Origin: a virus
IMG/VR virus record: IMGVR_UViG_3300045988_131409
DNA length: 39,460 nucleotides
Strand: one strand, 5' to 3'
In this document: positions 5,056 through 37,239 of the stretch, piece after piece
Layout of the letters: the number at the start of each line of letters is the position of its first letter
How positions within the stretch are numbered: position 1 is the first letter of the stretch
Notes under the pieces: model-generated
Databases searched by the model: none
What the model was told of the DNA's origin: nothing
The model's input: only the letters and a program-made list of their open reading frames with translations
Made by a program: the position numbers and the translations under genes

Positions 5056-5624
5056 TGGCCGGGGAGAGCGCTCTCACGATCATCGGCAACCTGACCGCCG
5101 ACCCGGAGCTGCGCACCACGGGCGGCGGCGCGACCGTGGCGAGCTTCACGATCGCTTCGACCCCGCGCAACTGGAACCGGCAGACCAACCAGTTCGAGGA
5201 CGGGCAGGCATTATTCATGCGCTGCTCCGCGTGGGGCGACATGGCCGGCCATTGCGTCCAGTCCCTGAAGAAGGGCATGCGAGTGATCGCCCAGGGCCGA
5301 CTGAGACAGCACTCGTACCAGGCGCAGGACGGCTCCCAGCGCACGGTCATCGACATGACCGTCGACGAGATAGGCCCCTCATTGAGGTATGCGACCGCCG
5401 CTGTCAACCGTGTCCAATCCGGTCGCGGCTATTCCGGTGGCTCGACCTATGGGGATCCGGCCAAACCCGCCAACCAGCAACAAGGCTGGCAGAACGGTTC
5501 CCCGGCCCAGAACCCCGGCATGCCGGAAGGTGACCCGTGGGCTCAGCCGGCACCCGCCTCTCCTGGCGCCACGTTCGGCGCTTCCAACGATTTTTCATCA
5601 GACAGCCAAGACCCCGAATTCTAA
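5055..5624 (+). CDS. ssb: Single-stranded DNA-binding protein
   Basis: N-terminal OB-fold signature MAGESALTIIGNLTADPELRTT, a Gly/Gln/Pro-rich linker and an acidic tail ending DSQDPEF. Confidence 0.9.
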   Translation: MAGESALTIIGNLTADPELRTTGGGATVASFTIASTPRNWNRQTNQFEDGQALFMRCSAWGDMAGHCVQSLKKGMRVIAQGRLRQHSYQAQDGSQRTVIDMTVDEIGPSLRYATAAVNRVQSGRGYSGGSTYGDPAKPANQQQGWQNGSPAQNPGMPEGDPWAQPAPASPGATFGASNDFSSDSQDPEF

Positions 5625-6167: not shown

Positions 6168-7589
6168 GTGGCTATCAACATCATCGATATCAACGTAAAG
6201 AGCCTCATCCCGAACCCGAACAACCCCCGCAAAGACGTGGGCGATGTCACCGAACTCGCCGACAGCATCAAGGAGCAGGGCCTGCAGCAGGCGCTTGTGG
6301 TAACCCCCGACCATGAGGAGCACGGCGAGCGCATGTTTCGTGTGGTGATTGGTCATCGTCGTTTGGCGGCGTGCAAGCTGGCTGGCATTGAGCGGGTGCC
6401 GTGTGTTGTGCGTGAGTTGGATGCGAAGACCGAGCGTGAGCTGATGCTGGTGGAGAACTGCCAGCGTTCCGATTTGACGCCGTTGGAGGAGGCTGACGGG
6501 TATCAGGGTTTGCTTGACCTGGGTGCCGGTGTGGGGGAGCTTGCGGCGAAGACGGGCCGTTCGGAGTCGTTCGTGCGTGGCCGGTTGCGGATCGCGCGTA
6601 TCCCCGCCGATGTGCGTTCCGGGTCGGAGGGGTTCGCGCAGTTGTCTCTGGCCCAGTTGGATGAGTTGGCGGAGTTCGAGGATCATCCCGACATGATGAG
6701 TGAGCTGGCTTCGCAGGCCGGGTCGAACAATTGGGCGTGGAAGGCCAATCAGCTGCGTCACCGGTTGAAGGACGAGGCGTGGCGTGTGGCGGTGCGTGCC
6801 GTGTTGCGTGAATTGCATGTGGTCGTGGAGGAGCCTGAATCCGGTTCGGTGTGGTCGGTGCCGGATGGCTGCCTGTTCTGTGACGTGTTCCATGGCCGGC
6901 CCGAGGATCTGGCCGACTGGTGGAAGCAGTGGCGGGTGAAGCATCCGACGGACGGGCCCGTGGTGCGCGTCGCCGACACCACGGTGTATGCGTTCCCTCG
7001 TATGAGCGCCGCGCAGATCGCCGAACGCGATGCCAGGGACGCGGCCCGTGAACGCGAGAACGCCTTGGCCGAGGAACGGTTGGACCGGCGGAAACGCTTC
7101 GAGCATGATGCCGCGCAATTGCGTCTCGTCTGGATCAGGGAGCACGCCACCCGGTTCAACGGCGGACAACTGCGCAAAGCCAACACCCGTTTGAGCCTGC
7201 TCGTCCTGACCGGCACCGACGGCTATTCTGGCCTCATCGCCAGCCGCAGGTGGGACAACGGCGAGAGGGTGCTCGACGCCTACAACGCGCTGACCACCTC
7301 GCCGTTGCCGGTCATCGAGGACGGCGACGTGGACCTCTACTGCGAGCAGAACCTCACGGAACTGCATCGCCGTCAGAACGTGGAGGGGTCCGCGAACCGT
7401 GAGCTCCTGCTCATCCTGTGCGCCCAAATGGAAGCCATCATCGACCACAGCACGTGGGCAGACAAGGACGACATCACCATCGCCCAAGCCTACTATCAGG
7501 CGCTCGAAGACCTCGGATACCCCATCTCGGACGAGGAAAACAAAGCACTCAAAGGCGAATATCTGCCCGAAGACGACGAGGCGGAGTGA
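6168..7589 (+). CDS. ParB/Srx-like N-terminal domain protein
   Basis: The motif run LIPNPNNPRK ... VVIGHRRLAACKLAG ... LVENCQRSDLTPLEEA is the ParB-type nuclease/CTP-binding fold. Confidence 0.8.
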   Translation: MAINIIDINVKSLIPNPNNPRKDVGDVTELADSIKEQGLQQALVVTPDHEEHGERMFRVVIGHRRLAACKLAGIERVPCVVRELDAKTERELMLVENCQRSDLTPLEEADGYQGLLDLGAGVGELAAKTGRSESFVRGRLRIARIPADVRSGSEGFAQLSLAQLDELAEFEDHPDMMSELASQAGSNNWAWKANQLRHRLKDEAWRVAVRAVLRELHVVVEEPESGSVWSVPDGCLFCDVFHGRPEDLADWWKQWRVKHPTDGPVVRVADTTVYAFPRMSAAQIAERDARDAARERENALAEERLDRRKRFEHDAAQLRLVWIREHATRFNGGQLRKANTRLSLLVLTGTDGYSGLIASRRWDNGERVLDAYNALTTSPLPVIEDGDVDLYCEQNLTELHRRQNVEGSANRELLLILCAQMEAIIDHSTWADKDDITIAQAYYQALEDLGYPISDEENKALKGEYLPEDDEAE

Positions 7590-18011: not shown

Positions 18012-18073
18012 AACGGGGATAACCCCCCGGATTATGTGCCGGTCTCAAGAGCCGGTTACGTGGGATCCCCGTT
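18012..18073 (+). other. Nested stem-loop element between the MuF gene and the tRNA
   Basis: AACGGGGAT (18012..18020) pairs with ATCCCCGTT (18065..18073). An inner hairpin CCGGT-CTCAAGA-GCCGG is present. Confidence 0.5.
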
Positions 18074-18091
18074 ACCTCGATTCTACCATAC

Positions 18092-18173
18092 GGCGGGTTG
18101 CCGGAGAGGCCGATCGGGGCCGACTGTAAATCGGCTGCATCACGCCACGCAGGTTCGAATCCTGCACCCGCCA
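18092..18173 (+). tRNA. tRNA-Tyr (anticodon GTA), class II long variable arm
   Basis: Manual fold. Acceptor GGCGGGT/ACCCGCC is 7 bp. D stem is CCGG/TCGG with one GU pair. Anticodon stem GCCGA/TCGGC carries loop CTGTAAA. The variable arm is 13 nt. T arm is GCAGG-TTCGAAT-CCTGC. Discriminator is A and CCA is not encoded. Confidence 0.9.
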
Positions 18174-18242
18174 CTCCACACCACCCGCACGGGTGGTTTT
18201 TACGCCCGGAACGGGCCCCATCAACCACAAAGGAGAACCATC

Positions 18243-18773
18243 ATGCACGACATGCCGCACTGGCACCGATTCCGCAACAACCTTCGTCTCATCGATTCCG
18301 GCGCAGGCGAAGGCGGCTCCGGCGACCCCGCAACGGGAGAACCGGCCGACCCCGGCGAGGACATCGACTGGAAGGCGAAGTTCGAGGAGCAGCGCGCCCA
18401 CTCGCGCAAATGGGAGCAGCGCGCCAAGGACAACAGCAAGGCCGCCGAGGAACTGCAACAGTTCAAGGACTCGCAGCTGTCCGAAGCCGAGAAGGCCGCC
18501 AAGCGCATCAAGGAACTCGAAGCCGCCAACGCCGCCTACGAGGCGGAACGACAGCAGAACGAGTGGAAGGCGCAGGTCTCCAAGGAGACCGGCGTGCCCG
18601 CCTCGCTGCTGCACGGCGACACGCTCGAGGCCATGACCGCGAACGCGAAGGCCATCGACCAGTACGCACACCCCAAGCCCAAGGGCATGCCCCACCAGGG
18701 CAAGACCCCCGACGGCAAGGCCGCCGGCGCCGACGAACGCGCATGGGCCGACGACCTGTTCTCCAACCTCTAA
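18243..18773 (+). CDS. Scaffolding protein
   Basis: AAGGAG RBS. Charged coiled-coil-like sequence (KAKFEEQRAHSRKWEQRAKDNSKAAEELQQFK) directly upstream of the capsid gene. Confidence 0.7.
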   Translation: MHDMPHWHRFRNNLRLIDSGAGEGGSGDPATGEPADPGEDIDWKAKFEEQRAHSRKWEQRAKDNSKAAEELQQFKDSQLSEAEKAAKRIKELEAANAAYEAERQQNEWKAQVSKETGVPASLLHGDTLEAMTANAKAIDQYAHPKPKGMPHQGKTPDGKAAGADERAWADDLFSNL

Positions 18774-31187: not shown

Positions 31188-31991
31188 ATGACAGTCGAAC
31201 TCATCACCGGCTTCGCCGGCACCCCACACATCGGCAGCGACGACATCGGCGCATTCCAGGCCGGCATCGTCGGACCTGGCGACTACGCGCTCGCCACCGG
31301 TAATCAGCTCAGGGCCACCATGAGCAACGCGAACACCATCGCCGTCCAATCCGGTGATGCCGTATTGAACGGCCGCCATGTGCACCTGACCGGCACCACC
31401 ACCGCCACCGTGCAATCCGGCACCCAAGGCCAGAAACGCAACGATCTCGTGGTGCTTCGCTACACGAAGAACACCACCACCGGCGTGGAAACCTGCTCAA
31501 TCGTGGTCCTCAAGGGCACCCCCACCACCGGTACCCCGGCGGATCCGGCCCACAACACCGGCAGCATCCTCGACGGCGTCGCCACCCACGACATGCCCCT
31601 CTACCGCATCCCGATCAACGGCATCACCGTCGGTACCCTCGTGCCATTGTTCAACGTTCTGAAGCCGATGACCGACGTGTGGGATTCCCTATCCCCGAGC
31701 ACTTATATTGCATGCGGACGAACGAACGAGGGGGTCAGTGCCCTTGGGGCAGTCTCCTTCAAATTCCCGACCGGCCGCCCCTCTTGGGCGGCGGGTCGCA
31801 AGCCTGATTCCTTCGTGTTCAGCGATGATGAGCAGGCGAACAACAACGAGATTGTCCAGAAGCGATATATGTCGCGTCTTTGGAGCCTAGACGCGAATGG
31901 AGGCCAGTTCAGAATCCTTCGATCCGACACATGGTCATGGATTAACGCTGGGAACTACCCTGTTAGCTGGATCGCTACATGGAACAAATAG
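31188..31991 (+). CDS. Distal tail fibre / receptor-binding protein, currently expressed shufflon variant (v0)
   Basis: AGGAG RBS, 267 aa, last structural gene. It contains the + oriented recombination site at codons 166-170. Confidence 0.75.
   Translation: MTVELITGFAGTPHIGSDDIGAFQAGIVGPGDYALATGNQLRATMSNANTIAVQSGDAVLNGRHVHLTGTTTATVQSGTQGQKRNDLVVLRYTKNTTTGVETCSIVVLKGTPTTGTPADPAHNTGSILDGVATHDMPLYRIPINGITVGTLVPLFNVLKPMTDVWDSLSPSTYIACGRTNEGVSALGAVSFKFPTGRPSWAAGRKPDSFVFSDDEQANNNEIVQKRYMSRLWSLDANGGQFRILRSDTWSWINAGNYPVSWIATWNK
31683..31696 (+). repeat. Shufflon site 0 (GATTCCCTATCCCC) inside the expressed gene
   Basis: The core TTCCCTA-NCC is shared with the minus-strand sites. The frame is GAT TCC CTA = D166 S L. 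Confidence 0.75.
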
Positions 31992-32014
31992 CCTTCCCTG
32001 GATAGGGAAAGCTA
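31989..32014. repeat. Tail-to-tail site-like palindrome TAGCCTTCCCT-GGAT-AGGGAAAGCTA
   Basis: Stop plus site-like sequence of v0 faces stop plus site of cassette v1. Arms are 11 bp with 1 mismatch. Confidence 0.7.
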
Positions 32015-32296
32015 GTTCCATATCGCAACCCATGAGAATCTTGCAGGCCATCTTGTGCCGAACTCTCCAGTACTGGTGTTCATCAATCGCATTTGTGCTG
32101 CGTTCACACCATTCTCCCAAATGGTTATGGCCAAGCCTCGCATGTCGTCCGAGGGCCACGGCCCGGGGGTGGCGACAATTACGTCAGGCGCCTTGCCGTT
32201 GGGAGATTGGTAGGAGATGACGCAAATGCCGTTCTCGTTGGAACTCCCAATGAACACGCCTGATTGGACGGACGTGGGCAGTGGGGTTAGGGAAAA
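32012..32296 (-). other. Silent C-terminal cassette v1 (94 aa, no own start/RBS at its 5' boundary)
   Basis: Minus frame runs from site B: F-S-L-TPLPTSVQSGVFIGSSNENG ... SWVAIWN-stop. The ending parallels the v0 ending SWIATWNK. Confidence 0.7.
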
Positions 32297-32299
32297 CTA
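32283..32299 (-). repeat. Shufflon site B (minus strand TAGTTTTCCCTAACCCC)
   Basis: The TAG is the stop of cassette v2. TCC CTA is in frame with cassette v1. Confidence 0.75.
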
Positions 32300-32623
32300 C
32301 GCGGGCACCGGGTCGGCGGTGCGCCAGACGCCGGCGCATCCCGCGTACGCGCTGTTCGGGTTACCGAGCATCGTGACGGTGCCATTGGCCTCGCCGTAAC
32401 AGATGAATGTCGTGTTACCACCGAAAACGGCCACGGGCGTATTGACGGAAACAGGTCGATACCCTTCGGGAATCTTCTCCTGAGCCTTCGTGTAATTGTT
32501 TTCCCCTGACTGGTCGAATTTCACGTTGCCGCCCATAAAACAAATATTGCCGATGCGCGTAAGCAAAACGCTGTCTCTGCTATACGGCACACGCCACCCC
32601 GTCGAACGCTGGGCTAGGGAAAG
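32297..32623 (-). other. Silent C-terminal cassette v2 (108 aa)
   Basis: Minus frame runs from site C: L-S-L-AQRSTGWRVPYSRDSVLLTRIG ... EKIPEGYRPVS ... GVWRTADPVPA-stop. Confidence 0.7.
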
Positions 32624-32626
32624 CTA
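32611..32626 (-). repeat. Shufflon site C (minus strand TAGCTTTCCCTAGCCC)
   Basis: The TAG is the stop of cassette v3. TCC CTA is in frame with cassette v2. Confidence 0.75.
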
Positions 32627-32938
32627 GGCGGTCAGCCAGCTGCCAGTACAGGTTTGGTAATATCCTTTATCCGCTTTGCCGCGGACGATGATGCTTCCAT
32701 CAGAGCTTATATACCAGCTACCGACAGCGCCGCCATTGTTCGATACAAACAGAATCGACCCGTAGGAAGCTGGCCTGTATCTTTCCGGGATTTTCTCTAT
32801 AGCTTTCAATTCTCCGGTCGCATAACTAGATGATGGCGAAGGTTGGCCGACCGCTATAACGATGCGACCTATGCGCATGAGTAGTACATTCATCGCGTAG
32901 GGGCCAGTAAACGATACAGACGATTGGGTTAGGGAATC
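32624..32938 (-). other. Silent C-terminal cassette v3 (104 aa)
   Basis: Minus frame runs from site D: D-S-L-TQSSVSFTGPYAMNVLLMRIG ... EKIPERYRPAS ... GSWLTA-stop. It is a paralogue of v2. Confidence 0.7.
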
Positions 32939-32941
32939 CTA
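32926..32941 (-). repeat. Shufflon site D (minus strand TAGGATTCCCTAACCC)
   Basis: The TAG is the stop codon of the recombinase gene. TCC CTA is in frame with cassette v3. Confidence 0.75.
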
Positions 32942-33808
32942 TTGCCCGATCAGCGCGCGTTCCCAGATGCTTTGGGCCTCCTTGAGAGACGCGATTTCCG
33001 GTCGCAGATAGAATCTGGCGGTCGTCTTGATGTCGGTGTGACCGAGGAACTTGCTGACCACCGCGATGTTGACTCCCGCTTCCAGGGCGTTGGTGGCCCA
33101 ACTGTGGCGGAGATTCTGCACCGGCACGTAGGGCAGCGACTCCTTTTTGCACCATGAGGCGTAGCGTCGCGCGGCTTGCGATGGAGTCAGGTCACCGATG
33201 ATACGGCCCTTCCGGCCGTTGCGGATCTCCCGCAATCGCCGGACGGCGAATCGGGGAAGGGGCAGAAACCGGTCGGACAGTTCAGTCTTCGGCGGCACCA
33301 CCACTTCGTGGCCGGCCACCCATTGCACTCCACGCTGGATATGAGTGATGCCGGAACGCATATCGATATCCGCCCAATCGACTCCGTACCCCTCTTCCGG
33401 CCGCAACGCCAGACACGAGTCCACAATCAGCCAAGCCTCAAGCGCATGGCCATAAAAGCCCTGTAGTTGGCGACGAGTCTGCCCGATGGTCAGCAGACGC
33501 GGCACATAGAGCGGCTTGGCCGGCAGATCAATCTCCAAACGGGTCACATCGACCTCTAAGTAGCCCCACTTCGCGGCCTTGCGTAGCATCTGCCTCAACA
33601 CCGCCCAAGCCTTGCGGGCCGCACCTGGACCCGCGAACCCTGACAGCCACAGCTCGATGTCATCCACGCCGATGTCAGCCAACTCCATGCTGCCGAACAC
33701 CGGCTCCACATGGCACCGCCAAGCCGACTCATAGCCAACGCGCGTGACCTCGCGCAGGCGCTCGCAATAGCCGACATACCGGTCATCCCAAAACTCTTGC
33801 AACAACAT
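32939..33808 (-). CDS. Small tyrosine recombinase (shufflon invertase candidate)
   Basis: ALRPEEG (Arg I), NLRHSWATNALEAG, FLGHTDIKTTARFY (His and catalytic Tyr), ~289 aa with no arm-binding N-domain. GGAGG sits 5 nt before ATG 33808. Alternative starts are 33877 and 33892. Confidence 0.8.
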   Translation of the reverse strand: MLLQEFWDDRYVGYCERLREVTRVGYESAWRCHVEPVFGSMELADIGVDDIELWLSGFAGPGAARKAWAVLRQMLRKAAKWGYLEVDVTRLEIDLPAKPLYVPRLLTIGQTRRQLQGFYGHALEAWLIVDSCLALRPEEGYGVDWADIDMRSGITHIQRGVQWVAGHEVVVPPKTELSDRFLPLPRFAVRRLREIRNGRKGRIIGDLTPSQAARRYASWCKKESLPYVPVQNLRHSWATNALEAGVNIAVVSKFLGHTDIKTTARFYLRPEIASLKEAQSIWERALIGQ

Positions 33809-33890
33809 TTCGACCTCCGAAAACCCACACGCCTCGCGGCCAATCCGCTCGGTATCGCGTGTGGGTTTTCTCACCATAAAGGAGCCCCGC

Positions 33891-35956: not shown

Positions 35957-35982
35957 ATAGAGTGGACTATAGAGTGGACTCC
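35957..35982 (+). repeat. attP arm-type repeat pair (ATAGAGTGGACT x2)
   Basis: Exact tandem 12-mers just upstream of the integrase RBS, in the same orientation as the 35736 pair. Confidence 0.65.
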
Positions 35983-36000
35983 CAACAGGGAGGGAACCCA

Positions 36001-37239
36001 ATGGCCGCAACGAAAAGACGCCGCACCAAGGGCGCGGGAGGAGTGTTCAGGGACAAGGCCGGCAAATGGCATTTCCGCACCGAGATCACGGCCGACCCCG
36101 GCACCGGGCGCCGCCGCATCATCGAGACCACGGGACTGGTCAAATCCGACGCCCGCCAACGCCACGAGAACAAGCTCAGGGAATACGAGCGCACGGGCAT
36201 CATCCATTCCAATCAGTCGCCCTACCTGCGCGACTACATCATCCGATGGTGCGGGCAGCGCCGCCGCGACCTGAAACCCAACACCTGGTACAACCTCGAC
36301 AAGCGGTGCAACATCATCGCCAATATTATCGGGGGAGTGCGGCTCGCCGAGCTCACGCCCGCGCACGTGCGCCTCATGATGGACAGGCTCGGCCGAACCC
36401 GCGCGCCGCGAACCGTGCGCGAATACCACGGGATACTCAAACAGGCGCTCGACGACGCCGAACTCGAGGAGCTCATCGACCGCAACCCCTGTCGCAGGGT
36501 CAGGCCGCCACGCTACGAGGAGACCCCGCAGAGGATACTCGACGAATCACAGCCCAAGGAACTGATCGCCGCCGCCGTCAAGGCACCCATGGCCGGAGGC
36601 AGGCGAGGCCCGCACGACTCCCCGGAGGACACCGAGATGTGGGCCATCCTGTTCGAACTCGCGTTCGCCACCGGCATGAGGGAAGGCGAACGATACGCGC
36701 TCATGCCCTACGAGCTAGAAATACGCGACGGCATACCCGGCATCTTCGTCCAACAGCAGCTCCAGGACTACGTCGGCGGCGCCGACGCGGTGATACCCAA
36801 ATGGCACAACGCCGTCCACGTGGTCGGCGGACTCTGGCTCGTACCACCAAAATCCAAGAAAGGCGTACGCTTCGTGCCCATCACATGGAACCTGTGGAAC
36901 CGGCTGTGGAACCGCATCATCATGTTCGGCATGCACCCCCACCAGTTCATCTTCAACAACCTCCTCGGCCGACCCATACGACAGGAACAGGAAAACCGAC
37001 GCTGGAGAAACGCCCTCCAAGCAGCCGGCCTCCCATACGTCAAAATCCACTCCGCCCGCCACTGGACAGCCACCAGAGTCGCCGAATCAGGAGCCAGCGA
37101 AGACGAACGCATGGCCGTACTCGGCCACACCGACATCCAAATGACCGCCCGATACACCCACTGGGGCACCAAGGCGCTCGCTGACATGATGCGCGAAGCC
37201 ATACCCAGCCTCACGGATGACAGTGATGACGTGTCATAA
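36001..37239 (+). CDS. int: Phage integrase (tyrosine recombinase with an arm-binding N-domain)
   Basis: GGGAGGG RBS. N-terminal GGVFRDKAGKWHFR (AP2-like arm-binding), then HSARHWTATRV and VLGHTDIQMTARYTHW. Confidence 0.9.
   Translation: MAATKRRRTKGAGGVFRDKAGKWHFRTEITADPGTGRRRIIETTGLVKSDARQRHENKLREYERTGIIHSNQSPYLRDYIIRWCGQRRRDLKPNTWYNLDKRCNIIANIIGGVRLAELTPAHVRLMMDRLGRTRAPRTVREYHGILKQALDDAELEELIDRNPCRRVRPPRYEETPQRILDESQPKELIAAAVKAPMAGGRRGPHDSPEDTEMWAILFELAFATGMREGERYALMPYELEIRDGIPGIFVQQQLQDYVGGADAVIPKWHNAVHVVGGLWLVPPKSKKGVRFVPITWNLWNRLWNRIIMFGMHPHQFIFNNLLGRPIRQEQENRRWRNALQAAGLPYVKIHSARHWTATRVAESGASEDERMAVLGHTDIQMTARYTHWGTKALADMMREAIPSLTDDSDDVS

Follow-up and report, generated by a model that had tools for sequence, protein, structure and literature searches.

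The viral DNA stretch IMGVR_UViG_3300045988_131409 (39,460 nucleotides; the whole stretch is called the window below) contains a receptor-binding protein gene, an array of silent C-terminal cassettes and a tyrosine recombinase gene. The locus is one more example of the Rin shufflon, an already described switch that works by DNA inversion; this new copy refines the known system. As shown in Table 1, the constant part of the receptor-binding protein gene (Rc) is fused on the plus strand to one variable cassette (vE), and three silent cassettes (v1, v2 and v3) and the recombinase gene (rin) lie on the minus strand. The Rin shufflon was first described in Bifidobacterium prophages, with a recombination site (rix) of the sequence TTCCCTAACCC, a 168-residue Rc, variable parts (Rv) of 95-100 residues and an armless tyrosine invertase (PMC6109161). 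The window has five TTCCCTA sites, one on the plus strand and four on the minus strand, with right flanks ACCC, GCCC, TCCC or TCCA. The window Rc is also 168 residues long, when Trp165 and the Asp-Ser-Leu encoded through the core are included, and the cassettes have 93, 101, 103 and 107 codons.

Table 1. Features of the Rin shufflon locus in the window. Sites are written as left pentamer / core / right flank.
Feature	Position	Strand	Description
Rc, constant N-terminal part of receptor-binding protein gene	31188..31684	+	through Trp165 and GA of the next codon; open reading frame 31188..31991
vE, expressed variable cassette	31685..31991	+	101 codons after the core; TAG 31989..31991
v1, silent cassette	32012..32294	-	93 codons; TAG 32012..32014; fused to Rc in L007
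v2, silent cassette	32297..32621	-	107 codons; TAG 32297..32299
v3, silent cassette	32624..32936	-	103 codons; TAG 32624..32626
rin, armless Xer-like tyrosine recombinase	32939..33877	-	PF00589 and PF14659, no other Pfam domains
S0, rix site in expressed gene	31680..31695	+	TGGGA (TGGGATTCCCTA left pentamer) / TTCCCTA / TCCC; TGG is Trp165
S0b, degenerate direct-orientation site after expressed cassette	31989..32000	+	TAG-CC-TTCCCTG; mismatch at core position 7
S1	31999..32014 (pentamer and core 32014..32003)	-	TAGCT / TTCCCTA / TCCA; stop of v1; poor right arm
S2	32284..32299 (pentamer and core 32299..32288)	-	TAGTT / TTCCCTA / ACCC; stop of v2
S3	32611..32626 (pentamer and core 32626..32615)	-	TAGCT / TTCCCTA / GCCC; stop of v3
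S4, rin-proximal site	32926..32941 (pentamer and core 32941..32930)	-	TAGGA / TTCCCTA / ACCC; TAG is the stop of rin

All the testable hallmarks of a Rin shufflon were found at this locus; for the likeness of Rv to lactococcal receptor-binding heads, no confirmation was obtained. In the published description, Rv was likened to the receptor-binding head of lactococcal phage TP901-1, and Rc to the receptor-binding protein of phage 1358 (PMC6109161). A sequence search of solved structures with the window receptor-binding protein returned noise only, and the PHROG matches were families of unknown function or of structural proteins. Among these, residues 3-171 match positions 1-171 of phrog_9994.

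The recombinase gene has an ambiguous start: the ATG at 33877 gives 312 residues, and the start at 33808 (MLLQEFW), which is that of most database homologues, gives 289. The solved structures best matched by a profile of 15 Rin homologues are XerC-like proteins, XerD and XerA. The residues R136, K174, R234, H257 and Y267 are invariant in the Rin alignment (A1). The protein ends about 20 residues past the catalytic Tyr, with the C-terminus ARFYLRPEIASLKEAQSIWERALIGQ, and has no Rci-type C-terminal domain. Rin homologues with 50-64% identity to the window Rin were found in about 20 other Bifidobacterium species (24 loci). A second large clade has Rin proteins 62-65% identical to that of the window, with the same core and the same cassette pool; it is taken to be the published longum/breve type, which is assumed without direct comparison to the named phages.

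The five TTCCCTA copies of the window all lie in 31685..32936. Only 0.94 copies are expected, and none of 100 shuffles reached five. The longer 12-mer T[A/G]G-NN-TTCCCTA (TRGNNTTCCCTA) also has five copies, at this locus only, with 0.01 expected. Chance as the source of the cluster was ruled out by these expected counts and the shuffles. The original prediction, made from the window alone, stated that the stop codons of the recombinase, v3 and v2 are each the TAG of TAG-NN-TTCCCTA. This was confirmed by the motif scan, and the same applies to the stop of v1. All five stops of the system are indeed TAG, including that of the expressed gene, and the equivalent triplet of the expressed copy is TGG, codon 165 (31680..31682). 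The TAG codon is a rare stop in this phage, with a background of about 10%: 30 gene-like open reading frames at 2575-31172 end in TAG 3 times, in TGA 19 times and in TAA 8 times. This background comes from crude calling of open reading frames; it was limited to plus-strand frames with gene-like codon-position G+C, because the crude list includes probable antisense artefacts.

The prediction also described rin and the silent cassettes as one continuous frame. This is true in the window, where the minus-strand translation of 33877..31958 reads Rin...GQ, stop, DSLTQ...TA, stop, LSLAQ...PA, stop, FSLTP...WN, stop, LSLSREGY.... The rin, v3, v2 and v1 frames are separated by TAG alone, forming a single frame of 640 codons, and the stop coordinates 32012, 32297, 32624 and 32939 have spacings of 285, 327 and 315. 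The continuous frame is not an independent fact: it follows once the stop keeps a set distance from the core, whose own reading frame does not vary (GA-T TCC CTA). The core is read as Asp/x-Ser-Leu, and any stop at positions -5 to -3 is therefore in frame with the next cassette (bases are numbered from the core, which spans +1 to +7). A TAG at -5 would thus automatically place rin and all same-strand cassettes in one frame. The frame is a by-product, and it fails in relatives where cassettes with a stop at -6 are spaced by 286, 373 or 379 nucleotides. It is plausible that only the cassette fused to Rc is translated, as had been predicted.

The position of the strand exchange was examined in natural junctions. 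Two groups of IMG/VR contigs were used: clade 1 has 23 contigs, with rin 98-100% identical to that of the window and varied cassette orders, and clade 2 has 54 contigs. Each site was split into a left context (12 nucleotides and the pentamer) and a right context (from +8 onward), and about 250 junctions from metagenome assemblies were compared. At least two different right partners were found for 14 left contexts in clade 1 and 17 in clade 2, each pairing with 2-14 right flanks. The majority pentamer was kept at 85 of 89 sites in clade 1 and at 127 of 139 in clade 2. In both clades the exceptions were confined to -1 and -2, with none at -5 to -3. The majority +8 base was kept with the cassette at 87 of 88 and 135 of 140 sites, respectively. 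For example, the rin-end left arm (S4) pairs with 13 different right flanks in relatives, and the +8 G of v2 is seen behind three different left arms, so that it moves with the cassette.

The same pattern was found for the alleles of the window itself. Three contigs (L003, L006 and L007) carry an Rc 99.6-99.8% identical to that of the window. In independent samples, the window Rc allele is fused to vE (the window and L003), to v1 (L007) and to v2 (L006); the left flank of S0 is correspondingly joined to v1 in L007 and to v2 in L006. The fused v2 of L006 is 100% identical to that of the window, and v2 lies beside rin in L003 and L007; v3 is 99.4% identical in L006. The vE cassette is silent in L007, where it is preceded by TAGTT. 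Comparison of L003 with L007 reveals both reciprocal products of a single S0 x S2 inversion, with TAGTT/v1 and TGGGA/vE in the one and TAGTT/vE and TGGGA/v1 in the other. No Rc site has TAG, and within the clade of the window no rin end has TGG. The prediction had placed the crossover 3' of the T[A/G]G triplet, in TTCCCTA or just beyond, and the natural junctions of 77 loci bore out a crossover 3' of the triplet, in TTCCCTA. Exchange is confined to the 7-bp core, because the markers at -5 to -3 never cross, and those at -2, -1 and +8 switch in less than 10% of the sites. These comparisons place the exchange in TTCCCTA; any spill-over is rare and limited to the adjacent one or two bases. As to the claim that a displaced cassette is re-capped by a stop, such a cassette is preceded by the stop of whichever left arm it joins, and its own stop simply stays on its side of the crossover.

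A separate observation concerns the +8 base of S0 (31692), which is T in the window. The 99.4% identical cassette of L003 and L007 has A at this position; a T at +8 is found again in S1, the next site along. The T at 31692 could be due to a point mutation or to a rare exchange just outside the core.

Comparison of the 24 loci from about 20 Bifidobacterium species showed that the core differs between arrays. The cores TTCGCTA, TTCCGTA, TTCACTA, TTCCCTG, TTCCCAA and TTACCAA were found, and the differences are mostly synonymous in the Ser-Leu codons. Within each array, the core is uniform at every site. The B. imperatoris locus L155 (5369..8081) is the clearest case: its Rc and v3-like cassette are 89% identical to those of the window (31188..32936), its rin is about 68% identical (nucleotide), and TTCGCTA is found at all 7 sites, including that which flanks the v3-like cassette. 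The core thus tracks the array and the enzyme, not the cassette, because L155 has an Rc and a cassette close to those of the window and yet TTCGCTA throughout. Such uniformity within arrays and divergence between arrays would be expected of a strand-exchange region. The identities also differ from part to part, both in L155 and among the IMG/VR loci, where rin may be 98-100% identical with an Rc that is about 70% identical or unalignable. Among gut bifidophages, the histories of rin, of the cassettes and of Rc are therefore discordant. A possible reading, of low probability, is that cassettes bounded by rix and carrying their own stops are portable modules that pass from phage to phage even where the Rin and Rc genes differ.

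The bases flanking the core were counted in unique contexts, 90 on the left and 82 on the right. On the left, -4 is a purine in 90/90, -3 is G in 88/90 and -1 is A or T in 90/90. On the right, +8 is mostly A or T, and C is found at +9 in 81/82, at +10 in 82/82 and at +11 in 75/82. Of the 9 positions of the Rc left arm CGTGTGGGA, 7 are mirrored in the right-arm consensus ACCCAGACG, and at S0 the arms GGGA and TCCC form a perfect inverted repeat. From these counts, the site appears to be R-G-N-W / 7-bp core / W-C-C-C(A) (R, purine; W, A or T; N, any base), in which GGGW/WCCC is a short inverted repeat. It is larger than the published rix, which was defined as 11 bp; the left arm, the overlap with stop codons and the covariation of the core between species were not described there (PMC6109161). 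A 12-bp palindrome, TAG-N6-CTA, was also considered as the site, and was rejected because a 7-mer with GGGW/WCCC arms is a far better fit to the family as a whole.

The constraint on the left arm acts on the DNA and does not simply follow from the stop codon. Among about 32 arms that are neither TAG nor Rc arms (for example AGGGA, CGGGT, GGGGA, AAGGT and CGGCA), R-G-N-W is kept in all but one (L160, GGTAA). In addition, L151, L165 and L166 have TAG at -5 to -3 though rin stops earlier, at TAA or TGA; in L165 this TAG is out of frame. The arm GGG[A/T] is the commoner one at Rc sites and, outside the clade of the window, at most of the rin-proximal sites. The idea that TAG itself is part of the site is therefore partly supported: the purine at -4 and the G at -3 are constrained, and the codon is optional, since 14 of 39 cassette ends use other offsets or stops.

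These 39 unique contexts are the cassette ends that precede a site, and their stops lie at -5 to -11. At -5 there are 25 ends, with TAG only. The other offsets are -6 (5 ends; TAG, TAA), -7 (4; TGA, TAG), -8 (3; TAA, TAG, TGA), -9 (1; TGA) and -11 (1; TGA). For rin, 23 unique contexts from the clade of the window and from the loci of other species have the stop at -5 to -17. TAG at -5 makes up five of them; of the other single arrangements, TGA at -7 is the most frequent. The published-type clade ends rin with TGA at -9, before a full CGGGA or GGGGA arm. The recombinase gene had been proposed to be tied to the array by its own stop, and this applies family-wide in a looser form: rin stops 5-17 nucleotides from the first core in all 23 contexts. 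The close fusion of stop and site is thus universal in the loci compared, with TAG-NN-core as the commonest arrangement, not an obligatory one.

Taken together, the following mechanism is proposed. Rin would invert the DNA between the site in the receptor-binding protein gene and the oppositely oriented sites before the silent C-terminal cassettes, joining the constant 168-residue part to a different tip of about 95-110 residues. The asymmetric 7-bp core TTCCCTA would be the strand-exchange (overlap) region, with both strand exchanges within it. From the sequences we infer that Rin binds the arms and cleaves so as to leave a 7-bp overlap; the anatomy of the locus, the family-wide conservation, the covariation of the core and the crossover interval in natural recombinants are direct observations. 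A gene with a site at its 3' end, whether rin or a cassette, would have to stop before the core, since inversion would shuffle its C-terminus if it did not; compaction of the phage genome would then place this stop in the left arm. The arm consensus at -5 to -3 is TGG, which is a Trp codon at the Rc site and from which TAG is one transition away. No other stop codon fits there, since TAG alone has a purine at -4 together with G at -3. The reading as a whole (the Rin shufflon anatomy, exchange in a 7-bp core, R-G-N-W and W-C-C-C arms, and TAG from the combined constraints of coding and site) is considered probable, with good confidence.

Several points weigh against this mechanism. By the standards of tyrosine recombinases the conserved arm is short, at only 4 bp (up to about 9 bp at Rc). 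Part of the arm also overlaps coding sequence (Trp-Asp at Rc and Thr-Gln at the cassette starts), so its conservation might be partly at the protein level. The bases at -1, -2 and +8 change partners in 3-9% of the sites, where mutation and near-core exchange are indistinguishable. The junctions are shorter than a read, but the cassette order of a contig may mix subpopulations, as the contigs are metagenome assemblies. Finally, TAG is also the commonest stop (26/49 unique ends) at tail-to-tail cassette ends that have no adjacent site, and 19 of these 26 lie in a CTAG palindrome with overlapping convergent stops. The arm constraint is therefore not the sole source of TAG, and ancestry and compaction contribute to its use.

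The last point leads to an alternative in which the TAG codons are unrelated to the site, being a habitual stop that the cassettes inherited and that genome compaction kept beside the sites. The site-less TAG ends, including those in shared CTAG, agree with this, as does the paralogy of the cassettes, many of which end in a similar ...GCC/GCG TAG. However, habit would not explain why R(-4), G(-3) and W(-1) are kept where the stop is elsewhere, including the rin ends of about 20 species, or why L151, L165 and L166 retain TAG at -5 to -3 when it is redundant or out of frame. Offsets other than -5 use a mixture of TGA, TAA and TAG, and the phage background of TAG is low. This alternative is considered improbable. 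The continuous frame could also be taken as functional, with TAG read through or recoded to give Rin-cassette fusion proteins, as a frame of 640 codons interrupted only by TAG might suggest. No read-through apparatus was found in the window, which has no suppressor tRNA and only a tRNA-Tyr (GTA). The expressed gene also ends in TAG, the relatives break the frame and use TAA or TGA, and the frame follows trivially from the fixed stop offset. Readthrough was rejected on the tRNA content and on the broken frames and other stops of the relatives; its likelihood is regarded as negligible.

A further alternative assigns a different role to the left arm. The TAGNW arm might be a designed weak half-site, with the full GGGW/WCCC dyad only at Rc and, in many phages, at the rin-proximal site. 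This would discourage pairings between two silent sites, which are prone to deletion, and promote Rc x silent inversions, with no accessory domain or factor. Nearly all arrays have TGGGA or TGGGT at the Rc site, and 27 of 44 unique internal left-arm contexts are TAGNW. In the R64 shufflon sites (sfx), too, a 7-bp core lies between a conserved right arm and a variable left arm, an asymmetry that is thought to restrict Rci to inversions (PMC11852207). Moreover, the avoidance of deletions was left unexplained by Mavrich et al. (PMC6109161). On the other hand, some internal sites have full GGGW arms (CGGGA, GGGGT and AGGGT), Rc and a directly oriented internal site could still delete, and Rin has no counterpart to the additional C-terminal domain of Rci. 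Events between direct sites do seem to occur, to judge from one collapsed array (L274) and one tandem cassette duplication (L011). A designed weak half-site is therefore regarded as rather unlikely, with somewhat more in its favour than an unrelated habitual stop. If true, weak half-sites would answer the directionality question for armless tyrosine invertases. The preferred explanation of the TAG codons remains the combination of coding and site constraints at the left arm.

The two unusual arrays are as follows. In L274 (IMGVR_UViG_2907562514_000001, 5368..5392), the array is collapsed to ...GCC TGA A CGGGA/TAGGGAA/TCCCACAC..., where a single core lies between the left arm of Rc and that of rin, and all cassettes are missing. 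This is not the expected product of ordinary inversion. In L011 (3240..3900), one cassette (ACCCCTGTCACGGGC...) is present twice in tandem, by direct-site recombination or as an assembly artefact. In the window, S0b and S1 lie head-to-head at the tail-to-tail junction of vE and v1 (31989..32014) and form the near-palindrome TTCCCTgGAtAGGGAA; the same structure is present in L003 and L007. No cassette follows S1 in the window, and the same left arm precedes a normal ACCC cassette in L009, L011, L013 and L023. An S0 x S1 inversion would give Rc with a 17-residue stub. Convergent cassette pairs that share CTAG were seen in L004, L005, L146, L149, L150, L152, L167, L169 and others (for example TTCGCCTAGGCGAA and CGCGTCTAGACGCG). 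The contigs L001, L015, L161, L165 and L166 end 4-5 nucleotides past a rix core, which would be expected if assemblies branch there from populations of mixed orientation.

The host phage is apparently of the B. adolescentis type, judging from the window Rin, which shares 100% identity with a protein that is named XerC in a B. adolescentis metagenome-assembled genome. A megablast search of the locus against the INPHARED phage collection gave no match. A single-protein scan of bacterial genome contigs found just one 1.1-kb Collinsella-binned contig and one unrelated match. The former is L001 (CAJLPI010000051.1, 1,135 bp), with rin 99% identical, which was binned as an uncultured Collinsella metagenome-assembled genome. 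The label is probably a binning error, because the identical protein is named elsewhere from B. adolescentis. A pattern scan of bacterial genome contigs with TTCCCTANCC-N(300-330)-TTCCCTANCC gave about 120 chance matches in unrelated taxa, and these (L026-L145) were disregarded. Upstream of the locus, Pfam and PHROG matches identified portal, tape measure, Dit and minor tail protein genes; downstream are an amidase/CW_7 lysin and then a separate 425-residue integrase. This second tyrosine integrase (PF00589) lies at 35962..37239. The tRNA-Tyr (GTA) gene inside the phage, at 18092..18174, overlaps the start of the listed open reading frame 18036..18773, and a ParB-like protein is encoded in the early region (6168..7589).

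The closest known systems are the dnaJ2-integrated Bifidobacterium prophages Bb423phi1, Bl157phi1 and Bl30698phi1, which have the same core and right arm, TTCCCTA-ACCC, as the window (PMC6109161). As in the window, an armless tyrosine invertase is adjacent, the locus lies between tail and lysis genes, and cassettes are shared with the presumed published clade. Without direct comparison to the named phages, that clade differs from the window in its rin stop (TGA at -9, against TAG at -5), besides the Rin divergence given above. A Rin shufflon has also been reported in the clade 1 prophages of Eggerthella lenta, with Rv genes, an Rc gene, a tyrosine recombinase and the 8-bp repeat TTCCGTAT (PMC8778435). 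The core of this repeat is the same as in several of the Bifidobacterium arrays studied here, and it lies just after a stop codon; the E. lenta loci were compared by description only (PMC8778435). The host of that system belongs to a different class than Bifidobacterium.

Rin may also be compared with the site-specific recombinases of other families. The XerC/XerD sites (dif), like rix, have inverted arms around a central region of 6-8 bp, and the closest solved relatives of Rin are XerC-like proteins and XerD. These enzymes function in dimer resolution rather than inversion, and only 4-9 bp of the Rin arm are conserved. Gin, Cin and Min, of phages Mu, P1 and p15B, are serine invertases with a 2-bp crossover and a requirement for an enhancer and Fis. 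They share the logic of Rin: inversion changes the C-terminal part of a protein with which the phage recognises its host. The window locus is not of this type, because the enzyme adjacent to the array is a tyrosine recombinase; the rest of the window was not searched for serine recombinases.

The R64/IncI shufflon (Rci, sfx) resembles the Rin system in its tyrosine recombinase, multiple inversions, 7-bp core, conserved right arm and weaker left arm (PMC11852207). In both systems C-terminal segments of one protein are swapped, and segment pairs are arranged tail-to-tail, as in many Rin relatives. However, Rci has an extra C-terminal domain (PMC11852207), and its target is the PilV pilin instead of a phage receptor-binding protein. 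The left arm also differs, as R-G-N-W is kept in Rin sites and is a recognisable mirror of the right arm. The window locus is therefore not a member of the R64-type family, because Rin is without the Rci C-terminal domain and its left arm mirrors the right. Relative to these systems, the present analysis extends rix to at least R-G-N-W / 7 bp / W-C-C-C, places the crossover in the core and offers an explanation for the overlap with stop codons. The half-site and core variants are concrete material for the study of how an armless tyrosine invertase avoids deletions. They are also offered to anyone who might want to use Rin as an orthogonal shuffling tool alongside Rci.

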